Shown here: piece by piece, positions 22,316-37,845 of the stretch
How positions within the stretch are numbered: position 1 is the first letter of the stretch
Layout: each line of letters starts with the position of its first letter
Assembly (NCBI GenBank): GCA_965220415.1
Contig: OZ244829.1
Location: forward strand, 984,717 to 1,048,716
Direction: 5' to 3'
Source: Candidatus Poribacteria bacterium
Lineage (GTDB): Bacteria > Poribacteria > WGA-4E > JAJDTR01
DNA: 64,000 nt
Made by a program: the position numbers and the translations under genes
Notes under the pieces: generated by a model
The model's input: only the letters and a program-made list of their open reading frames with translations
Told to the model about the DNA's origin: nothing
Database searches by the model: none

Positions 22316-22395
22316 ACTAACGTATCGAATCTGATTTTTGTCACTGGGATGTCGAAGAAACTAGATTGGTAAAGCACGAACCGCGAAAAATCTTA

Positions 22396-22622
22396 GAACC
22401 TGTTTGAACAATAGGTGCCAATGCCATTTTTTGCTATTTGAGGAGTGGAATTTCATGTTTCTGCCGTGACTTGTTGTACACCTGTGGGATCTCTATCGCC
22501 CTCCTTAATCAGTTGCTTGATCCCCGCTGGGGCTTTTGGAGGCTGGTGCGCAGGGGATCTCTATCGCAGTCGCTTTTCGCTCCTTTGATCGCACCCTACA
22601 AATGTACTTTTCAAACAGGCTC
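22396..22622. mobile_element. MITE-like element, copy 2 (TIRs GAACCTGTTTGAA / TTCAAACAGGCTC)
   Basis: Collinear with 1778-2030 and carries two internal GGGATCTCTATCGC units. Abuts the mtnA stop codon. Confidence 0.6.
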
Positions 22623-26667: not shown

Positions 26668-28611
26668 TCACCACCACGCGGTGAATCCGTACGTCCGCAC
26701 ATTAAGCAGTACCCCCAACAACGCCCAACAGGTGCCGATGGTGAAATCCGCGAAGACCATGCCGAGGAAAAACGGGATGGCGGCACGGTGTGCCTTCATG
26801 CCGCCTGCCTTGAGGAGGATCCATTTGATGAGCCACGCCGTAAAGAACATGAACCACGTGTCGCGCATCCCGTAGGTGCTGGATACGGCGTAACCGGCAG
26901 GGTGGAGCGGCCACCACAGGAACCGCACCCGCATAAACATCACAAACAGACCGAACAGTAATCCAAAGGAAAAAAAGCCGATTCCGTACATATCCGGGTG
27001 CATGGGATAGATTAACCAACGGTTCAGTCTACCGAGGGGCTCGCCGCCCCAACTTGCGCCATGCTTATACCCTGCATCAAGCAGTGCCCAGAACGCGATA
27101 ACAGTGCCGACAACAATCGCAATAAGCATCACGGCGAAAACGCGGCGTTGATTCATACGTGATCGGTCCGCGATACGGAACCCTTCGAGTTGGTGCGGCA
27201 TCGGGTCGCTGTAATGTGCCCGGGTAAGAAACCAGAACAGAGAGACTATTGATAGTGTCCGCGGCCCGACTCGGCGAGTACCAAAAGCGTCCAGCATAAG
27301 TATTTCGGGGCCCGCGAAGTGCAAGTCGTGCACTGGCGAGCCAACCTCCGCTCGGATGCGTGTCACACCGATATTTGTCATGAGGAGAAGCGCAAAGAAC
27401 ATCGCGGCGCCCCACCATGTCATTCCCGCTTGGTAACAAAATATAACGATAAACAGAAAGCCCGCAACCACGCCGTACACGGCAACATTGTACGGCAACG
27501 CCTCCCCCTTGCTGTCCCCGGCGAGCCGCCGGTCCCAGACCGAGCGAATCACTCTGGAAAAGTGATGTCTCCCCGTCCAGATGGCGATGACGCAGAGCGC
27601 AATATAAGCGCCGGCGGACTGTTCGGGAAATTCGGGGCGCTTTTGGAATCCCCACGCCTCCCCTAAAACCAACTGCGCCTTCCAGAAAAAGAAGAAAACC
27701 CAACATGAGAACGCGATGTCGAGAGGAACGAGGAAGATGAGACCGAGGAGAAACGGGCGCACCAACAGCGCCATGTAGCCGATGGCGTCCCACGGTTTTG
27801 TCGTGAAAAAGTTGCCCAAGTTATAGGCGCGAAGCTGGAACGACGGCACGACAGGGTAGAACGTGTGCAAGCCGTTCACAATGTTGATGATGCAAACCAC
27901 CGTGAAACTGGTCCATAGAAGTTTACTTTTGAAGAGCCGCGATTTCGGATTCGCCATTTCATACGGCAATAGCGTGAGCGGGTAGGTCAGCCGCTCGCGC
28001 TCCGTCCACTGTTTCCTGATGATGGCGTTAATGCAAAGCATGACAAACATGAAGACACAAATAAACGCCGTCCACGCGAGCACCGGCACAATCCAAGGCC
28101 TGATATGGGCTTCGATGTACAAGGTCGCGGGGCGTTTCGTAGCCGTCGCCATGTAGCCGGTCAACGCCTTGGTGTCAGTGACGATAAGCCAGTCGGGATA
28201 GTGGTGACCGAAAAGGTTTTTCCAGTCGTTCTCGGGAGTGGCAAAACCTACGGGGGCTGCGAGCGTCGGCGGGAGAATCTGCATCATGCTATGACCGGCG
28301 AGTGTGCCCGCTATGCAGAGCATCACATAGATGGTAACCAACTCGCCCTGCCCAAGCACCAACCTCGGCGAAATCCGTCCTAGGACGGCGTTCAGCATCA
28401 GCAAAAGGGTGAGATTGAAAATGGCGTGGAAGAGGAGACTAAAGTTGGTGGAGTGCGCGATATAGTGGACCGTTTCCATGTAAACGATCCAGAATGAGTT
28501 GAAGGGTATCAACAGGAGAGCGATGAGCACCGCCCGCCACGTGACCCGCGTTTGCCTCATTGATTCATCAGTTGACCGGAAATGAGGCTGGTTGGTTGAA
28601 CTGAAAGCCAT
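26668..28611 (-). CDS. Hypothetical polytopic integral membrane protein (about 14 TM, Trp-rich)
   Basis: 647 aa, many hydrophobic segments. No family recognised. Confidence 0.4.
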   Translation of the reverse strand: MAFSSTNQPHFRSTDESMRQTRVTWRAVLIALLLIPFNSFWIVYMETVHYIAHSTNFSLLFHAIFNLTLLLMLNAVLGRISPRLVLGQGELVTIYVMLCIAGTLAGHSMMQILPPTLAAPVGFATPENDWKNLFGHHYPDWLIVTDTKALTGYMATATKRPATLYIEAHIRPWIVPVLAWTAFICVFMFVMLCINAIIRKQWTERERLTYPLTLLPYEMANPKSRLFKSKLLWTSFTVVCIINIVNGLHTFYPVVPSFQLRAYNLGNFFTTKPWDAIGYMALLVRPFLLGLIFLVPLDIAFSCWVFFFFWKAQLVLGEAWGFQKRPEFPEQSAGAYIALCVIAIWTGRHHFSRVIRSVWDRRLAGDSKGEALPYNVAVYGVVAGFLFIVIFCYQAGMTWWGAAMFFALLLMTNIGVTRIRAEVGSPVHDLHFAGPEILMLDAFGTRRVGPRTLSIVSLFWFLTRAHYSDPMPHQLEGFRIADRSRMNQRRVFAVMLIAIVVGTVIAFWALLDAGYKHGASWGGEPLGRLNRWLIYPMHPDMYGIGFFSFGLLFGLFVMFMRVRFLWWPLHPAGYAVSSTYGMRDTWFMFFTAWLIKWILLKAGGMKAHRAAIPFFLGMVFADFTIGTCWALLGVLLNVRTYGFTAWW

Positions 28612-28928: not shown

Positions 28929-29936
28929 CTATTGTCCCGTCTTTACCTGTCCCCAAGTTGTCGCTAACTTACTTTTTGGATTGACGCTGCGCGGAAGTCT
29001 AAAGGGCGGAGTATAGATAAACAAAGATCGCGCGAAGACTACACCGCCGGAAAACAGAAATATTTTCCCATCGACCACTTCAGAACGGCCAGCCCTCGGC
29101 TTCGGCATATCTGCCAACTGTTCCCATGTGTCCGTTGTCGGGTCATAGGCTTCTACCGTTTTCAGGATTCCGCTGTCATCACCCCCGCTAATCGCGTAAA
29201 TGATCCCATTGACTGTATTCACAGACAAACAACATCTCGCCGTTGGCATATCGGCTCTCTTTTCCCAGGTGTCTGTGGCGGGATCGTAAACTTCGACTGT
29301 CCGCACGTATCTGTCGGGATTCCACCGCTTGTTTCCCCCGATAGCATAAATCTTCCCATCCACAACACTTGTAGCATACCCCCACCTCTGCTTCGGCACC
29401 GGCGCCTTTTTCTCCCAGCTATCTGCGATCGGATTGTACGCTTCGGGGACTCCACCGAACACAAATATCTTCCCATCCACGACGTTTGAGGAGAAGTTAG
29501 ACCTTGGCTCAAGCATATCCGTCTTCTTCTCCCAAGTATCTGTGGCAGGGTCGAATTCTTCCACGTGTTTTCTCGTCCACAACATTTGAACACTTCCGCC
29601 GATTGCGTATATCTTCCCGTTCACGGCACTTGAAGCGAGATTGCTCCTCCCGATTTGCATGTCTGCCCGAAACTTCCATCGGTTGGTCTCGGGATCGTAT
29701 TCTTCAACAGTGCGAAGCACTTTCCCTCGTCGCGCACGTTGATCCCACAAAGTGCCGCCAACGACGAAAATCTTCCCGTTCACGGCGCTCGTGGCAAAAC
29801 CCACTCGTTGGCTAAGCATAGGGGTTTCCCTTACCTCCCAGGTGTCCCCCTTGGGTCTTGCCATACCTGTTAATGCGGCACCTAGAGTCAACATTATGGT
29901 GAATAGACTTCCCGCAATCCAAACATGGCGTCTCAT
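28929..29936 (-). CDS. Secreted Kelch-repeat β-propeller protein with conserved C-terminal tail ...KLATTWGQVKTGQ
   Basis: Signal peptide. Six Kelch-like blades (NGKIFVVGG, NGKIYAIGG, DGKIFVFGG, DGKIYAIGG, NGIIYAISGG, DGKIFLFSGG). Shared tail motif. Confidence 0.7.
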   Translation of the reverse strand: MRRHVWIAGSLFTIMLTLGAALTGMARPKGDTWEVRETPMLSQRVGFATSAVNGKIFVVGGTLWDQRARRGKVLRTVEEYDPETNRWKFRADMQIGRSNLASSAVNGKIYAIGGSVQMLWTRKHVEEFDPATDTWEKKTDMLEPRSNFSSNVVDGKIFVFGGVPEAYNPIADSWEKKAPVPKQRWGYATSVVDGKIYAIGGNKRWNPDRYVRTVEVYDPATDTWEKRADMPTARCCLSVNTVNGIIYAISGGDDSGILKTVEAYDPTTDTWEQLADMPKPRAGRSEVVDGKIFLFSGGVVFARSLFIYTPPFRLPRSVNPKSKLATTWGQVKTGQ

Positions 29937-30453
29937 GGTATACCCCCTTTGATTTGGAGATTGTCTATTGAACTAGGACATTTAAGATTGAACTTTGGTG
30001 GACAACGTAACCCCGAAAGCTGTGCATTTAGTCTACTTCCGGCGCCTGTTTTGACCGGTGCAAGCTATGTAATACCATTTCGCGTGAATAATGGCGCATA
30101 TGCGGTCTCAATAATCTCGTTTATTTACCTCGTAGGCGGAGATCAGGCGAACGAATAGTGAGTGCGATAGAGATCCCACAGATACGCGACAGACAAATAT
30201 AAAAATGCGAAAAAACTTCCTATAAATGACCAAAAGTGCTTTGCTATTGATTATTCAAACAGGCTCTTAAGCCTACCCCCGTTGCAGGTAATGTGGACAG
30301 CGAAGTCATCGGTCTAGAACGGATGCACGACTACGGCTAGACACCCTCCCAACCATTACGTGACGCCCTGGGCGCTGCCGAGGGTTTCAATGACTCATCC
30401 CGTCGCATTGCCCACACTATCAGGATTCGTAGTTCAAAAGGCTATCCTGCATA

Positions 30454-31440
30454 CTATCGGACGTGCGACGCACTTTTCTTAAGCCTACCCCAAATCTCGA
30501 CTGTTTTGGAAGCGCGGGACACACTTAATCCTACCGGCCTAAAGTCGGGCTCGTCATCGTTCACATCACGAACTTTGCTGAGTTGCTCAAGATATTTTCC
30601 GTCTGCGGTCATCAAGTGAATCTTTCTGCCGAAGGGAATACCTGCCTTAGAGACTACATATGCGATCGTCCCCCCATCGGGAGACCACGTCGGGCGTGAA
30701 TGATCTTCGTTATTGTGTGTAAGCCTCACCGGATTTTTGCCATTCGCTCCCATCACGAAGATGTGCCTGAATCCTTTGTGCGAGGCATCGTATGCAATCC
30801 GCTGTCCGTCGGGAGAAAACGAAGGGTTCGATTTACCCGTTAAATCGTGCGTTAACCTTTCAAGCCCCTGTCCGTCAATGCCCATCACGTAAATTTCGAT
30901 GCCTTCATCATTCCTAGATACGAATGCAATCTTTCCCCCATCCGGAGACCATGATGGCTGCATCGTTCGGTCTTCAAACCTTACACGATTTTGTCCATTA
31001 GCATCCATCACCTCGATATGATCTAACCCATCGTGGACGGTGAATGCAATCTTACCCCCATCGGGAGACCAGTCAGGATCCGCCTTCGTTGCCGGCCCAT
31101 CTGTCAGTTCAATCTGATTCTTACCATCGGCGTCCATGACGCAAATCTGATATCCGCCGGATCGACGGGAAACGAATGCAATCTTCGTCCCGTCAGGCGA
31201 CCAATCCGGTTCCCTGTCGTCCACTGGATGGTTTGACAAGTTTTCCCGGTTTCCTCCATCGGCGTCCATTACATAGATTTCATAGTTGTCAAATACCAGA
31301 TTTGAAAAAACAATCCGGGACCCCTGTGCGGCGAGTCCTCCTATAAACCACCGTTCCCCACTTAACAGCATCATGGTTAACCCGATACACGACACAAGTA
31401 TGCGCCGCAATCGCATTTTTTCCTCCTTGTTTGTGCCCAA
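30454..31440 (-). CDS. Secreted PD40/TolB-like WD40 β-propeller protein with conserved C-terminal tail ...TVEIWGRLKK
   Basis: Repeats of DWSPDGTKIAFVS...YVMDADG type. Signal peptide, probably starting at internal MRLRR. Shared tail. Confidence 0.7.
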   Translation of the reverse strand: MGTNKEEKMRLRRILVSCIGLTMMLLSGERWFIGGLAAQGSRIVFSNLVFDNYEIYVMDADGGNRENLSNHPVDDREPDWSPDGTKIAFVSRRSGGYQICVMDADGKNQIELTDGPATKADPDWSPDGGKIAFTVHDGLDHIEVMDANGQNRVRFEDRTMQPSWSPDGGKIAFVSRNDEGIEIYVMGIDGQGLERLTHDLTGKSNPSFSPDGQRIAYDASHKGFRHIFVMGANGKNPVRLTHNNEDHSRPTWSPDGGTIAYVVSKAGIPFGRKIHLMTADGKYLEQLSKVRDVNDDEPDFRPVGLSVSRASKTVEIWGRLKKSASHVR

Positions 31441-31568
31441 AATGAACAGTAAGGTAACCGGTTTTGAGTGCGTGCTCAGGTACCGTTTGTACGCGCTCCC
31501 AGTCCTTGCGCTATGCTCTCGGCACTGGCGATATTTTCAATCCCTGTTTTCTAGCCCCATTGACATCA

Positions 31569-32579
31569 TCAGGGCTTCCCGGTGCGTTTGAGATCTCCCC
31601 AAGATGTCGGCGACTTTCCGTTTGGGCTGACTGCAAACGCACCAGCAGCAAACAACCAGGAAGGAAGTATGTTATCAACACCGGGAGGAGTTCTCGTGAG
31701 TTTGACCGGGTTGCTCCCGTCTGTGTCCATCACATAAATATTATAATCTCCATCACGGGTTGACGCAAAGGCGATTTTTGTACCATCCGGCGAATAGGCT
31801 GGAAACCTGTTGCTACCCTCCTCCGTAAGCCTTTCTAAGTTTTCCCCTTCAGCGGTAATCGCGTAAATCTGATAATCCAGGCCTGGATTGAAGAGGTGCT
31901 GCGAGTGAAAAGCAATCTTGCTTCCATCTGGCGACCAAATAGGGTGCTGATTTTTCGTTAGGTCGGTATCGCCAGTGAGATTGCGCCTTTCCTTTCCATC
32001 CGCATTCATCACGAAAATATGCTCTGGAGTAAACAAGTCGCCATCACGGGCGGATACAAACGCAATCTTGCTTCCATCTGGCGACCAACTCGGTGAACTA
32101 TCCCTCCACTTGTGTTTTGTCAAATTTATCGGGTTATTTCCATTCTCGTCCATCGCATAGATTTCCAAGTTGCCAACGACCGCACGGAAAGATGAAAAGG
32201 CAATCCTCTTGCCATCCGGCGACCAACTAGGGTGGATTTCAACAAAATTGTCATGGGTAAGTCTTACCACGTTATTGCCATCGCTGTCCATCACATAAAG
32301 GTCATGTGTAACGCCGCGTTCTGATGTGAACACAATCCTTCTCCCATCCGGCGAGCAAGCGGGAGAGTAATCGTATGCCGGGTGGTCGGTGAGTTGGAGG
32401 AGATTGTTTCCGTTTTGGTCCATGGAGTAGATGTCCCAGTTGCCAATCCAGTCGCCGTCGTGGTTTGATTGAAAGACGATTCTCGGTTCGAATGTCTGTG
32501 CTGTGCTGTCCGAAACAACCATTAACGCCAGTAACAATAGAAACATGCGTCTACTCAATAATGGGCTGATTTTATTCAC
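31569..32579 (-). CDS. Secreted PD40/TolB-like β-propeller protein with conserved C-terminal tail ...SPTSWGDLKR
   Basis: PD40 repeats (SWSPDGKRIAFSS, YVMDSDGNN). Signal peptide. Shared tail. Confidence 0.7.
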   Translation of the reverse strand: MNKISPLLSRRMFLLLLALMVVSDSTAQTFEPRIVFQSNHDGDWIGNWDIYSMDQNGNNLLQLTDHPAYDYSPACSPDGRRIVFTSERGVTHDLYVMDSDGNNVVRLTHDNFVEIHPSWSPDGKRIAFSSFRAVVGNLEIYAMDENGNNPINLTKHKWRDSSPSWSPDGSKIAFVSARDGDLFTPEHIFVMNADGKERRNLTGDTDLTKNQHPIWSPDGSKIAFHSQHLFNPGLDYQIYAITAEGENLERLTEEGSNRFPAYSPDGTKIAFASTRDGDYNIYVMDTDGSNPVKLTRTPPGVDNILPSWLFAAGAFAVSPNGKSPTSWGDLKRTGKP

Positions 32580-33407
32580 CGGTCATCTTCTCCTTTTTCG
32601 GGTTCTATAACTTCTAGAGAATTCTCTAACCTAAGTTGCCACGTTTGTAGCACGAGGAATCTCTATCGCGCTGCTTTTTCAGTCGCTTGATCTGTTAGAT
32701 TGTGCTTGTGATGCGCAAACTGACAGATCACCTGGACGGACAGTGGGGGCGATAGAGATCCCTCTCCAGGTCGGAACCTCCTTACTTGCATTAGACACTT
32801 ATGGCGTAAACCTCTCACCGCATATCGTCTCAATTTACCAGAGACGAAACCGAATCAAACGACTTTTCAATGAAACTCTTACGCCTACCCTAGGTGCGGG
32901 TAGTGTTGGCGGCGAAGTCACTGGCCTAGAACGGGTGCACGACTGCGTTTAGACGCCCTCCCAACCATTACGTGACACCCACGGCGCTGCCGAGGGTGTC
33001 AATGACCCGCCCCATAGGGATCAAGTTAAGCGTTTTAGGGTGCAAGTCACGCAGCGTCAATGTCTTGAACTGTTGATCTCCATGTAGACGTGAGCGAGGG
33101 AATACCAGTTCATTCACTGATGGGTGCGCCACAAAAGATGACTCATGGCGCTGGTTTCCGCAGGTGCCGGTGCGGTTGGAAAGGGATCTCTATCGCACTC
33201 ATTATCCATTCGCTTGATCGCACCTACCGTGTGGGGGATGATAGAGATTTCCTCCCCATCCTATGGGACTAAGTTAAGGGTTTTGCGTCGGAGAACACCA
33301 CCGATACTAGACGAAATCCCTTAAGTCGATCCCAATGGGGTGTCAATGACCCGCCCCCGCATTGTCCCCATTATCAGGCTTCGTAGTTCAAAAGGCAATC
33401 GCGCAAA

Positions 33408-34376
33408 CTATGGGCGGTTGAGCTCGACTTTCTTCAGCTTGCCCCAAGTTGTGCTCGTTCTGGAAGCGGCGGAAACGGCTAGTCCTGTGGGGCGAAAGTG
33501 GGGCTCATAATCCCCACCATTGTTGGCATCGCTAAGTTGCTTAATATATTGTCCATCGGCGGTCATCAAGTGAATCGTTCCTATGAGGCGAAAATTACGT
33601 GCCGACACATAGGCGATCGTCCGTCCATCAGGAGACCATGCGGGCAGCCAATTATTCTGTGTACTGTGCGTAAGCCTCTTGCTCTTTTTACCATCCGCCC
33701 TCATCACATAGATTTGAAAATAAAGAGACTCTTCGTCCATGCCCCAGTATACAATCCGTCCCCCGTCGGGAGACCATGATGGCCTGCCTTTAACCCGTAA
33801 ATCATGCGTCAACCTTTTGCGGCCCCGTTTGTTCGCGCCTATCACGTAAACTTCTTCCACCCCATCTGTCAAGGATACATATGCAATCCTTTTCCCATCC
33901 GGAGACCATGACGGCTGATAAGCGTGGTGTTCAAGCTTCACACGATTTTTTCCATCAGCATCCATCACGGCGATATGAACAATCTTTTTCCCATCTGTAC
34001 TAGAGGAGAATGCTATCTTTTTCCCGTCGGGAGACCACGCCGGATAATCGTCCTTTACCGTGTCTGTGAGCCTAATCGGATTCTTTCCATCGGCGTCCAT
34101 TAGGTAGATCTGATTGAACCCGCCATTTCGGTTGGAAACGAACGCAATCTTCGTCCCGTCGGGAGACCACGCTGGACGGTAGTTGCCTGCTTGATTTGCC
34201 GTTAATCTTCTATGGTTTGTCCCGTCTCTGTCCATCAAATAAATCTGCGAATTCCCATCTCTAGTCGAAGTGAATACAATCGTGGCGAGTGCGCTTTTTA
34301 ACCACAGTTCTTCACTCGTCAAACAGACGCACAGTCCTGCAAACAGTAGACATCTAGGTATCAGTTTGAATCGCAT
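33408..34376 (-). CDS. Secreted PD40/TolB-like β-propeller protein with conserved C-terminal tail ...TSTTWGKLKK
   Basis: PD40 repeats (AWSPDGTKIAFVSNRNG, YLMDADGKN). Signal peptide. Shared tail. Confidence 0.7.
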   Translation of the reverse strand: MRFKLIPRCLLFAGLCVCLTSEELWLKSALATIVFTSTRDGNSQIYLMDRDGTNHRRLTANQAGNYRPAWSPDGTKIAFVSNRNGGFNQIYLMDADGKNPIRLTDTVKDDYPAWSPDGKKIAFSSSTDGKKIVHIAVMDADGKNRVKLEHHAYQPSWSPDGKRIAYVSLTDGVEEVYVIGANKRGRKRLTHDLRVKGRPSWSPDGGRIVYWGMDEESLYFQIYVMRADGKKSKRLTHSTQNNWLPAWSPDGRTIAYVSARNFRLIGTIHLMTADGQYIKQLSDANNGGDYEPHFRPTGLAVSAASRTSTTWGKLKKVELNRP

Positions 34377-34738
34377 TTTGCTCCCTCCTAGGTTATAACT
34401 GTTTAGTCCATTGATTTCTAGGGGCGATCGTTATGATTTTAGACAACCTTTTTCGCGAAGTTTTGGCGAACACCGCGCAGATACCCGTTTTTCTGGCTTA
34501 TAGTAGCATCAAGCGACTGGATAAGGAGCGCGATAGCTAATCCCCGGCGATAGTCCATCCCGCTCGCTGTTCACTCCGTTGATCTCTTTTTTCTTAAAGA
34601 CTAGGTTTCTTCCCTTATTCCTAGTGGTTGCAAGATGCGGAATAGTCGCCTCATGACTTGCAACTAATCACGTACAATCAAGGTAATCTCATGAATCACA
34701 GTTCAGAGAAGTTAACTGCCACCGACCAAGCGCACCCC

Positions 34739-35689
34739 TCACCGGAGGCTGAGCGCGGTATTCTTCATCCTGCCCCAAATTGTAATCTGGCGACCTTCCG
34801 GCGAAACCGAGAGTTCTCCCGGATATAGCCAATCCGGCTCGGCATTAGAGAACGCGGGATCACGTGGCAAAGCGTCGACATCGCCGTTAGTTACATCCAC
34901 CGTGTAAATCCCAACAATTCCAGGATCCCTTCCAAAAGAGTGAAACGCGATGGATCCACTGTCCGGTGACCATGTGGGGTGTTCTTCCGTAACATGCTCC
35001 GTGAGTTGCCTCGGATTCTTTCCGTCGCTATCCACCACCCAAATCACGTTATCGCCCACATACGCGATGCGCTTCCCGTCGTGTGACCATGATGGCAAAC
35101 GTTTTCGCACAAAGTCATGCGTTAACTGCATTCGATTTCGTCCGTCGACATCCATTACGTAAAGTTGAGCCCCATTACCATTTCTAAAGGAGATGAATGC
35201 TATTCGTTTTCCATCGGGCGACCACGACGGATGGAAGCCTCTCCTAGAAAATACCCTCTTGTTGTTCCCATCCGCATCCATCACAGTAATCCCACCGTGG
35301 GTGTCGTACACTATTTTTGTGCCGTCTGGCGACCAGTCCGGATAAACGTCATTCAACCCGTCCGTCAGTCTAATCGGGTTCTTCCCGTCGGCGTCGATCA
35401 CCCAGATTTGCTTGCGATCTTTGTTTACATTGTTTCTATTGGAAACAAAGGCAATCTTTTTGCCGTCGGGAGACCATGCCGGATATTCGTCCCTTGCTGA
35501 ATTTACCGTTACTCTTCTATGGTTACTCCCGTCGCCATCCATGACACAAATTTCCAAATTCCCGTCACGCGGAGAGGCGAAGGCTATCTTGGTTCTGCGA
35601 GAGGCGTAACCGATTTCCGCAAGTTGCATCTGGATAAACAGGGAGATGACAAGCACTGTCCCCGCCAGTTGTCTAGCGTTGAATGACAT
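34739..35689 (-). CDS. Secreted PD40/TolB-like β-propeller protein with conserved C-terminal tail ...QITIWGRMKN
   Basis: PD40 repeats (AWSPDGKKIAFVSNR, DWSPDGTKIVY). Signal peptide. Shared tail. Confidence 0.7.
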   Translation of the reverse strand: MSFNARQLAGTVLVISLFIQMQLAEIGYASRRTKIAFASPRDGNLEICVMDGDGSNHRRVTVNSARDEYPAWSPDGKKIAFVSNRNNVNKDRKQIWVIDADGKNPIRLTDGLNDVYPDWSPDGTKIVYDTHGGITVMDADGNNKRVFSRRGFHPSWSPDGKRIAFISFRNGNGAQLYVMDVDGRNRMQLTHDFVRKRLPSWSHDGKRIAYVGDNVIWVVDSDGKNPRQLTEHVTEEHPTWSPDSGSIAFHSFGRDPGIVGIYTVDVTNGDVDALPRDPAFSNAEPDWLYPGELSVSPEGRQITIWGRMKNTALSLR

Positions 35690-35699
35690 TTTTTCCTCC

Positions 35700-36497
35700 T
35701 CTTTTGAATATATACCGTGCGCTGTCAGAAATTGCGCTTTTCAAGATTTTAGGCTTGCTTCACCGATTGTAGAGACAGCACCAAGCGGACGGATTAGAAT
35801 GGGGTAACGTCGGCAGTTTCCACCTGTGGGATCCCTATCGCGCTCATTATCCATTCGCTTGATTCACTCTGGGGCTTTGCTGTAGGTCGAATCAGTTTCT
35901 ATACACCTTCCGCCCCTCTGGGGCTCTCAAGTAACACTCCACATTGCACTCCTCTGGAGTGCGGAAATTTGGACATATCGTATTCTATTGACATTTCGAT
36001 CCTCTGGATCGAGGAAAGGGACTCCGACCAGAAAGTGTTACTTGCTGAATGAATTATTCCGACAGGGATAATGGAGCGCTACCAAGATTTAATTAGGTCG
36101 CGATTCGGAGATTGCGGGATTTCTATCGCAGTCACTATTCGTTCCTTTGATCCTACAAAATAAGCAATTCTCAGCCGCCTGGAGTATAAGCTGATGTTTC
36201 AAGGGAGATTAAGCGAGCGATTAGCGATCAAGTGACTGGAAAGGGGCGCGATAGTGAATCCCGTGCTATAGGGGTCCCACCTAAAGTCCGTAGGCAGGAA
36301 CTAAGGGAGTGAATTATGACCGATCAACCGAGTGGATAGCGAGGGATCAAAGGAGCGAATAGCGATCAACCGACTGATTAGGGAGGGCGATAGAAAATCC
36401 CCTGTGATAGCCAATCCTGATACTAAATCCCGCGCGATAGTGAATCCCGATAGAATCCCAGTATGATAGAGATTCGCTGCTCACCATCCATTCGGTA
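35700..36497. repeat. Intergenic repeat cluster: multiple direct and inverted copies/fragments of the GGGATCTCTATCGC...CATTCGCTTGATCGCACC unit (repeat A)
   Basis: At least 8 GATAG(N)AATCCC fragments in both orientations between 36110 and 36480. Full unit at 35828-35870. Irregular spacing. Confidence 0.6.
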
Positions 36498-37301
36498 CTA
36501 TCGACCCTTCAATCTACCCCAGGTTGTCGCCAGCTTGCCTATTTCCGACACTGCTGAGAGCGGCGACAGTCCATTGTCCATGATTCCTGAGATGTCGTCC
36601 TCTGTAAGCGCAACACTAAACAGCGCTACTTCGTCAATAAGTCCCTTCCAGAACTCTCTGCCGAAGCCGTCGGATCCGATAGCGACATGTTCGGGAGTAG
36701 AGCCGCCGGTGACCTTTCCGACATTATGCTCGGCTTCTTCGACTCCATCAACATACACCCTGAGGCTGTTGCCGTCGAAAGTGCCCGCGACATGGTGCCA
36801 CTCGCCATCATCAATGTGTGTTGCGCTGTGAACACCTGCCCAATTACCGAAATGAATCCATAATGTCAGCTTATGGGCATTCCATCCCGATCCAAGTGAA
36901 AATGGCCCCTTGTCCCCCTTGTTCGGGTCCTGTTTGCTAACCACCCGTGCAGGCGCCGTAAGCCCTCCGTCGCCTCCGTCCCATCTACACCAAGCCAGTG
37001 CGGTAAGGCTCGTGAATCCATCAACGGCGTCAATATCGCCGCAATCTACGCGGTCATCCCCGTCGAATTCCAGGGCGCCGCCGAACTTCCCAGCTACCCA
37101 TTGCGGGTTCCCCACGAGTTGCCCGACATGATCGTTGCCGGATGTGTCACTTGCAACTTCGCCGTTCCCATCGTCCAAAAGCCACATCCCGATAACGTCT
37201 TCCGGGCTAAATTCGGCAATGCTTGCGCCTGCTAGAATCATTATTACGAACATGGTACTCACGCAGGTTCCGGTTGTTCCGTTCATCATTATCGCCTTCA
37301 T
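36498..37301 (-). CDS. Secreted LamG/concanavalin-A-like lectin-fold protein with conserved C-terminal tail ...KLATTWGRLKGR
   Basis: Signal peptide. LamG-like pattern (ALEFDGDDRVDCGD...EWHHVAGTFDGNSLRVYVDG...LIDEVALF). AGGAGG RBS. Shared tail. Confidence 0.65.
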   Translation of the reverse strand: MKAIMMNGTTGTCVSTMFVIMILAGASIAEFSPEDVIGMWLLDDGNGEVASDTSGNDHVGQLVGNPQWVAGKFGGALEFDGDDRVDCGDIDAVDGFTSLTALAWCRWDGGDGGLTAPARVVSKQDPNKGDKGPFSLGSGWNAHKLTLWIHFGNWAGVHSATHIDDGEWHHVAGTFDGNSLRVYVDGVEEAEHNVGKVTGGSTPEHVAIGSDGFGREFWKGLIDEVALFSVALTEDDISGIMDNGLSPLSAVSEIGKLATTWGRLKGR

Positions 37302-37505: not shown

Positions 37506-37845
37506 GAATTGAAATTAACCGCCAAACGCCTGCTTCCACTCTATCATCACTGTCGGAGCGATCAAATGAGCGAATATATCAAACGAGTGAATAACGAGTG
37601 ATCAAGGGAACGGTTAGTGACCGCGATAGAGATTCCATAGTAAATCCTCATACGATAGAGATCGCCCTCCTGTTCCCAACTTCCTGTCGTGGATTGGAGG
37701 AATCTCTACGGGATTTCTATCAGGATCCACTATCGCACTCATTATCCATTCGCTTGATCGTTCCAACAGAAAACGTGCAATGGATAGTGCTACCACAAAC
37801 GGAGTAGCACACGTCCTTACGTAACGCAAGTGGCTATACTCTGCG

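Follow-up and report, generated by a model that had tools for sequence, protein, structure and literature searches.

A tandem array of tagged propeller genes

The window (the whole 64,000-nt stretch of contig OZ244829.1 analysed here) carries six minus-strand genes, encoding a Kelch protein, PD40/TolB-like propellers and a LamG protein, that share a similar tail at the C-terminus, approximately (A/S)V(S/N)P..K..T.WG.(L/V/M)K and then a few residues more (Table 1). The window array genes scanned are all full-length ORFs, each having a start and a tag of its own. In gene 2, ATG 31416 is the only start that matches the public protein record, the mechanically called ORF beginning at TTG 31440. A-type genes encode ~320 aa with tails such as WGRLKKRAPDLR, and B-type genes ~336 aa with tails such as WGDLKRTGKP, in both cases directly followed by the stop. 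Scans of the six window proteins returned no Pfam or NCBIfam match to the tail region, and no curated model of known C-terminal sorting signals (PEP-CTERM, T9SS CTD and others) matched the six tails. The tail, common to Kelch, PD40 and LamG proteins, may, judged from its sequence, be a candidate uncharacterised sorting signal. A limited literature search yielded nothing relevant on a C-terminal tag or propeller arrays in Poribacteria, and no tRNA or tmRNA genes were found.

The nearest proteins to the window propellers come from Candidatus Poribacteria, and the propeller family is very large, with 6691 matches at E ≤ 1e-20 among 8000 candidates scored. Its members form tandem arrays whose composition varies between genomes. 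Same-strand paralogs with homologous spacers occur in window genes 2–4 and in the related loci L003, L004, L005 and L013–L016, and relatives vary in copy number, with anything from 3 to >12 propeller genes at a locus. All loci examined have, immediately downstream of their propeller array, a DUF6785/DUF6784 membrane-protein gene (window 26668–28611; L003 12117–14051; also L005, L013 and L015), which is 36% identical between the window and L003, whereas the array genes are ~90% identical. This contrast would fit either paralogous array loci or array genes moving between loci or genomes.

Table 1. Features of the propeller array and its surroundings in the window, in window coordinates (an asterisk within a translation is a stop codon).
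Feature	Position	Strand	Remarks
Kelch protein gene	28929-29936	-	tagged
Dispersed element E, ~135 nt	30135..30269	-	starts TAAGAGCCTGTTTGAATAAT, ends in 37-nt repeat
D1 deletion junction and tag-codon fossil of downstream paralog	30270..30302	-	putative
D1 core, array spacer module	30277..30453	-	profile positions 2-176; nhmmer E 1e-46
Gene 2, PD40/TolB-like propeller, A-type	30454..31416	-	C-terminal end SKTVEIWGRLKKSASHVR, then stop
D', complete gene 3-gene 2 spacer	31427..31576	-	BLAST 62%; nhmmer E 7e-34
Gene 3, PD40 propeller, B-type	31569..32579	-	C-terminal end SPNGKSPTSWGDLKRTGKP, then stop
D2 tail fossil	32878..32894	-	putative; reads ...ANTTRT*GRRKS
D2 core, distal part	32889..33013	-	profile positions 50-176; nhmmer E 9e-31
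MITE-like insertion splitting D2	33014..33337	.	324 nt
D2, proximal 50 nt	33358..33407	-	directly past gene 4 stop
Gene 4, PD40 propeller, A-type	33408..34376	-	C-terminal end TSTTWGKLKKVELNRP, then stop
PD40/TolB-like propeller gene	34739-35689	-	fifth tagged gene
LamG protein gene	36498-37301	-	tagged
~37-nt repeat, sites	30141-30177, 32656-32693, 32726-32766, 33183-33219, 34507-34547, 35824-35863
~37-nt repeat, further sites	36113-36152, 36364-36404, 37600-37640, 37730-37767
~37-nt repeat, also near	10715, 13724, 20387, 22486-22599, 24139, 45570

A conserved module follows propeller genes

An earlier note, made from the sequence alone, had described a DNA-level match between the 3' flanks of genes 2 and 4 (repeat D). 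Both a repeat search and BLAST recovered it in two parts, 30249–30401 against 32861–33013 (80.4% over 153 nt, E 5e-34) and 30382–30451 against 33338–33405 (81.4% over 70 nt, E 4.5e-12), and the three sequence blocks quoted in the note are present in both copies. The interval that the note gave as including the coding tail, 30241–30455, lies wholly downstream of the stop (the gene 2 stop codon is 30454–30456), but homology does reach the tail. There the coding sequences match at only ~71%, and the flank is thus better conserved than the tail. The D1 core begins 3 nt past the gene 2 stop codon, and a third, weaker window copy, D', overlaps the final gene 3 codons and terminates ~10 nt ahead of the gene 2 ATG. 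Behind the Kelch, LamG and 34739–35689 genes D is absent even at E ≤ 10, though all three are tagged.

A profile built from D1, the insert-free D2 and L003 5538–5800, and iterated once, recovered 34 sites spread over 12 Candidatus Poribacteria loci. Almost every one of these sites begins 2–4 nt past an A-type stop (profile position 1) or overlaps the last 5–15 nt of a B-type gene (position ~25). Where a gene follows, the match ends ~10 nt before the next ATG and thus takes in the whole spacer including the Shine–Dalgarno sequence; behind the last gene of an array it ends at profile position ~145, and upstream of the first array gene no profile match was ever found in the 12 loci. Many array junctions have a spacer of only ~40 nt, or contain no more of D than its first 45 nt. 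Scanning species-representative genomes gave seven stretches, of which four are in Poribacteria (three in OZ246960.1 and one in CBDCTK010000002.1), all behind tagged propeller genes; the other three were discarded as chance matches in other phyla. A JGI metagenome scan with a degenerate D pattern gave 0 matches. The proposal of a conserved module at gene 3' ends therefore stands, but not as one that accompanies the tag as such, given the three tagged genes without it.

In four loci (L003 9675–9818 and the equivalents in L013, L014 and L015) a full copy of D is found not directly at a B-type stop but ~145 nt beyond it, and may be the trace of a further A-type gene that was deleted.

One recent local event duplicating a gene with its flank, limited to genes 2 and 4, would agree with the arrangement of these paralogs, whose units lie ~3 kb apart on the same strand and whose DNA is ~71% identical. 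Similarity is not confined to the two genes, however: besides the third window copy there are ~30 in other genomes, and D1 is closer to L011 (88%) and D2 to L008 (87%) than D1 and D2 are to each other (81%). The closer partners in other genomes and the 34 profile sites refute such a duplication, and we give it next to no probability.

A shared deletion junction and the probable remains of a neighbouring gene

The distal end of D1 reads, in gene orientation, ...AVHITCNGGRLKSLFE and a stop, and contains a short stretch (GGGGGTAGGCT) that reads about WGRL. Window segments 30403–30283, 30302–30233 and 30190–30132 are collinear with L010 (OZ246960.1) 1381–1260, 342–274 and 259–200, which are, respectively, a spacer, the tail of an intact A-type gene ending WGKLKIPFEK and a stop, and a copy of element E; in L010 a 0.92-kb gene body separates the spacer segment from the tail segment. 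Because of this collinearity, D1 can be read as spacer, deletion junction, 11–17 nt of tail and element E. The junction stretch 30283–30302 aligns both to a spacer end and to a tail. The same junction is common to D1, D2, L003 5538–5800, L008 3377–3622 and L011 5824–5589, which argues that the deletion happened once.

The tail-like stretch, 11–17 nt long in the window copies, is probably, but not certainly, the fossil of the next gene's WGRLK tail, the body (~0.92 kb) having been deleted; the stretch is short, and towards its 5' side it also shows a moderate alignment to the region ahead of the RBS in normal spacers. This stretch and the sequence beyond it align with real gene ends in L004 (...SKTTAIWGRLKIPFEK and a stop) and with their downstream flank. 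The D2 fossil has TAG where the L003 copy keeps TGG, the latter reading ...NTTRNWGRRKSFIEKS with its tryptophan codon intact. With their downstream gene lost, D1 and D2 are probably relics without function. An apparent extra orphan tail at ~8447 turned out to be a chance match, out of frame inside a 1101-aa TPR gene.

A MITE-like insert and dispersed repeats

The 324-nt insert that splits D2 is bounded by imperfect terminal inverted repeats (CATAGGGATCAAGTTAAG / CTTAAGTCGATCCCAATG; 15/18 matches, in termini of 18–21 nt), and its target is duplicated, 32994–33013 being the same as 33338–33357 (GGGTGTCAATGACCCGCCCC). At 13–20 nt the duplication is unusually long, the minimum of 13 nt applying if CCCC/GGGG are counted as part of the element. 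L003 5540–5784 represents the empty site, with 84% identity to copy 2 across the junction, and a homologous element occupies a different site in the other orientation at L003 666–966. With inverted termini, target duplication, an empty site and a copy elsewhere, the insert has the features of, and on its sequence is, a MITE-like insertion. D itself has neither inverted termini nor a target duplication nor dispersed copies. The L003 666–966 element has a short GC hairpin on either side, and no target duplication is obvious there.

Element E ends in a 37-nt repeat (GGGATCTCTATCGC...GATC, 30141–30177), of which the insert also contains one (33183–33219). Other window copies of E are at 1774–1908 and 22395–22527, neither beside tagged genes, and the element (starting TAAGARCCTGTTTGAATAAT) also occurs at L004 10940–11060, L004 18480–18600 and L010 200–300. 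In some intact propeller genes E is fused directly after the WGRL codons and supplies the last residues and the stop (K-IPFEK, then stop). The ~37-nt repeat (GGGATCTCTATCGCACTCATTATCCATTCGCTTGATC), putatively REP- or MITE-like, is scattered over many intergenic regions in either orientation, with some copies forming inverted pairs (32656–32766), and is found in all related Poribacteria loci.

Exchange of 3' ends between array members

The D1 and D2 flanks are 81% identical, against 53% of residues and 57% of four-fold sites in their genes. The gene 2 body is 93–100% identical to the gene at L003 10001 up to CDS position ~864 (0.91 at four-fold sites), yet the flanks of these two genes are only 65% identical. 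From CDS position ~916–931 on, sliding windows give 96% identity between gene 2 and a gene of L011, the bodies of the two being 60% identical in protein, and gene 4 makes the same switch toward L008 (93–96% from position ~916–931). Max-chi analysis splits gene 2 at CDS ~864 between L003 10001 and L011 (218:16 / 18:92, p 1e-47) and at CDS ~956 between L003 10001 and gene 4 (296:22 / 18:73, p 3e-43), and splits the L003 4575 gene, 76 nt past its stop, between L003 10001 and gene 4 (247:77 / 7:65, p 2e-26). Mosaicism is thus evident both in max-chi splits and in sliding-window switches.

Recombination is required here because a reciprocal conflict cannot be rate variation, and the conflict between bodies and flanks indicates homologous recombination with variable junctions. 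The earlier note had raised the mapping of breakpoints relative to the tail; run by max-chi, it places the junctions at −100, −7 and +76 nt from the stop, differing between comparisons. Variable junctions therefore fit homologous exchange within arrays rather than a site-specific cassette. The note's suggestion that recombination could move tail and flank together was borne out to this extent: tail-end and flank have been moved onto different gene bodies, gene 2 having a body like that of L003 10001 and a tail and flank like those of L011.

At L004 10907–11350 and 11351–11795, downstream of a complete gene, there is a ~444-nt tandem duplicate of an orphan tail (AVSPTSKTTTIWGRLKIPFEK and a stop; ~21 codons) with its 3' flank (394 nt), which is another by-product of array exchange. 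At L008 2662–3375 a 237-aa shortened propeller has an internal deletion and is the nearest relative of the gene 4 signal peptide and tail.

The note had gone further, suggesting that tail plus flank could be a transferable cassette, one dedicated to spreading the C-terminal tag from gene to gene. The conflicting relationships of bodies and flanks, with junctions near the tag, would suit a cassette, as would the orphan tails that follow complete genes, both in the window and in L004. The junctions vary, however, where a discrete cassette is concerned; D has no terminal inverted repeats, target duplications or single-strand hairpin; no recombinase, integrase or transposase was found in the six neighbouring ORFs scanned (DUF6785, enolase-like, GH36, two PhyH and TIM barrel); and every D copy lies inside a propeller array. 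D is not how the tag spreads, because the tag occurs on unrelated proteins (Kelch and LamG, besides the 34739–35689 gene) without D. We consider such a cassette very improbable, and prefer homologous exchange among array members.

Sequence conservation, signals and coding potential of D

The D core is 63–80% identical between A-type and B-type units, compared at loci that, with a DUF6785 gene only 36% identical between window and L003, are not simple positional orthologs, whereas four-fold sites are saturated (22–31%). Its invariant positions are clustered (ATTGA.A, GAG and TC.A). Such conservation could reflect selection on a putative sequence signal, or a homogenisation of spacers that proceeds independently of the gene bodies.

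A conserved, structured RNA element in the 3'-UTR, which had also been proposed, found no support in folding or covariation. The RNAalifold consensus was −3.0 kcal/mol in sense and 0 in antisense for 18 copies, and −2.2 kcal/mol for 20 copies; single-sequence RNA z-scores were near zero (+0.14 and −0.57); and in the 64-kb window no Rfam family scored at its gathering threshold. Folded as DNA, neither strand (z 0.14–0.93) revealed a single-strand hairpin, and D contains no inverted-repeat arms or terminal repeats. There are no terminator-like sites in 30241–30455, 31427–31576 or 32861–33013, the total for the region being at chance level, as were the matches in a promoter consensus scan. Inspection of the invariant ATTGAAA and GGGAG blocks and their surroundings by eye, for spacing of the sigma-70, sigma-54 or ECF-like type, gave nothing convincing.

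D might nevertheless be a functional cis-element under purifying selection, recognised by sequence and not by fold, either as a signal for stability, processing or termination in the 3'-UTR or between cistrons, or as a promoter or operator for the next gene. The conservation of the core between A and B units against saturated four-fold sites, the clustering of its invariant positions and the persistence of D (positions 1–145) behind the last gene of arrays all speak for this reading, which is compatible with an origin as array spacer. The lack of conserved structure and the chance-level promoter and terminator matches speak against it, as do the many junctions with a ~40-nt spacer or only the first 45 nt of D, and the drift of the flank of one gene-2 homolog to 65%. 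On balance we regard it as rather unlikely, although it retains more weight than the other alternatives.

That the D core is instead a decayed coding region or a small-protein gene, on either strand, is scarcely credible. L003 has a 53-codon open frame running from the distal core into the tail fossil, but the copies differ by indels of 1, 2 and 7 nt, in-frame stops are common to the two window copies, plus-strand ORFs are not in the same frame from copy to copy, and the D core has no detectable similarity to the gene bodies. We rejected a coding origin on the indels and on the stops common to copies.

Origin of repeat D

Repeat D probably represents the spacer between genes of a secreted PD40 propeller family, amplified in tandem in a Candidatus Poribacteria genome, and has been reshuffled by ordinary recombination. 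Homology of the flanks, their distribution, the deletion architecture and the phylogenetic conflict between bodies and flanks were observed in the sequences compared above; the mechanism of recombination we infer, as well as a spacer that does no more than supply ordinary intercistronic signals. Whenever an array unit was duplicated, gene and spacer would be copied together, and the spacer would therefore run from the stop codon to ~10 nt before the next start. D1 and D2 would be one derivative of this spacer, in which a ~0.92-kb deletion took out the body of the next paralog and joined the spacer to that paralog's last few tag codons and to the dispersed element beyond. This derivative is now found after a number of different gene bodies. 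Array members have presumably swapped 3' ends by homologous recombination, whether unequal crossing-over or gene conversion, at junctions in or near the conserved tag-coding DNA. Such a deletion accounts for orphan tag fragments that might otherwise be misread as small genes or RNA elements.

A bolder extension, which we think improbable, is that the tag-coding DNA and the D core form a built-in recombination scaffold that shuffles bodies, C-terminal extensions and downstream units. The D core would then carry a sequence-specific signal, recombination-promoting or regulatory, that outlasts silent-site saturation, and the scaffold, if real, would diversify the secreted protein repertoire in Poribacteria.

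Comparison with known systems

Several known systems share part of this organisation. Like integron gene cassettes (an ORF followed by attC), the array has unidirectional ORFs, each with a ~60–170-nt repeat after it. Unlike attC, D does not form an imperfect-palindrome hairpin (DNA fold z 0.1–0.9), no integrase was found in the neighbours scanned, and the ORFs here are paralogs, not unrelated cargo. MITE/REP-type repeats resemble D in being repeated non-coding DNA between genes, and true examples are present in the 324-nt insert in D2, element E and, putatively, the 37-nt repeat; D differs in occurring only at the stop codons of array genes and in not being dispersed.

The silent cassettes of Neisseria pilE/pilS and Borrelia vlsE offer a closer parallel in one respect, in that related copies exchange segments via conserved flanking sequence. 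Those systems have a single expression site with promoterless partial cassettes. In contrast, the window array genes are full-length with their own start and tag, and the only fragments here are tail scraps of 11–17 nt in the window and ~21 codons in L004.

Tandem paralog arrays that evolve by unequal crossing-over and gene conversion match in all three features examined, namely same-strand paralogs with homologous spacers, mosaicism, and a copy number that varies among close relatives; spacers duplicated along with their units and orphan fragments are further points in common. Homogenisation here is only partial, unlike in such arrays, with A and B bodies saturated at silent sites and spacers 63–80% alike. 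The Poribacteria propeller array appears to be a new instance of a recombining tandem multigene family, and shows how a large family of secreted propellers expands, contracts and becomes mosaic in this phylum.
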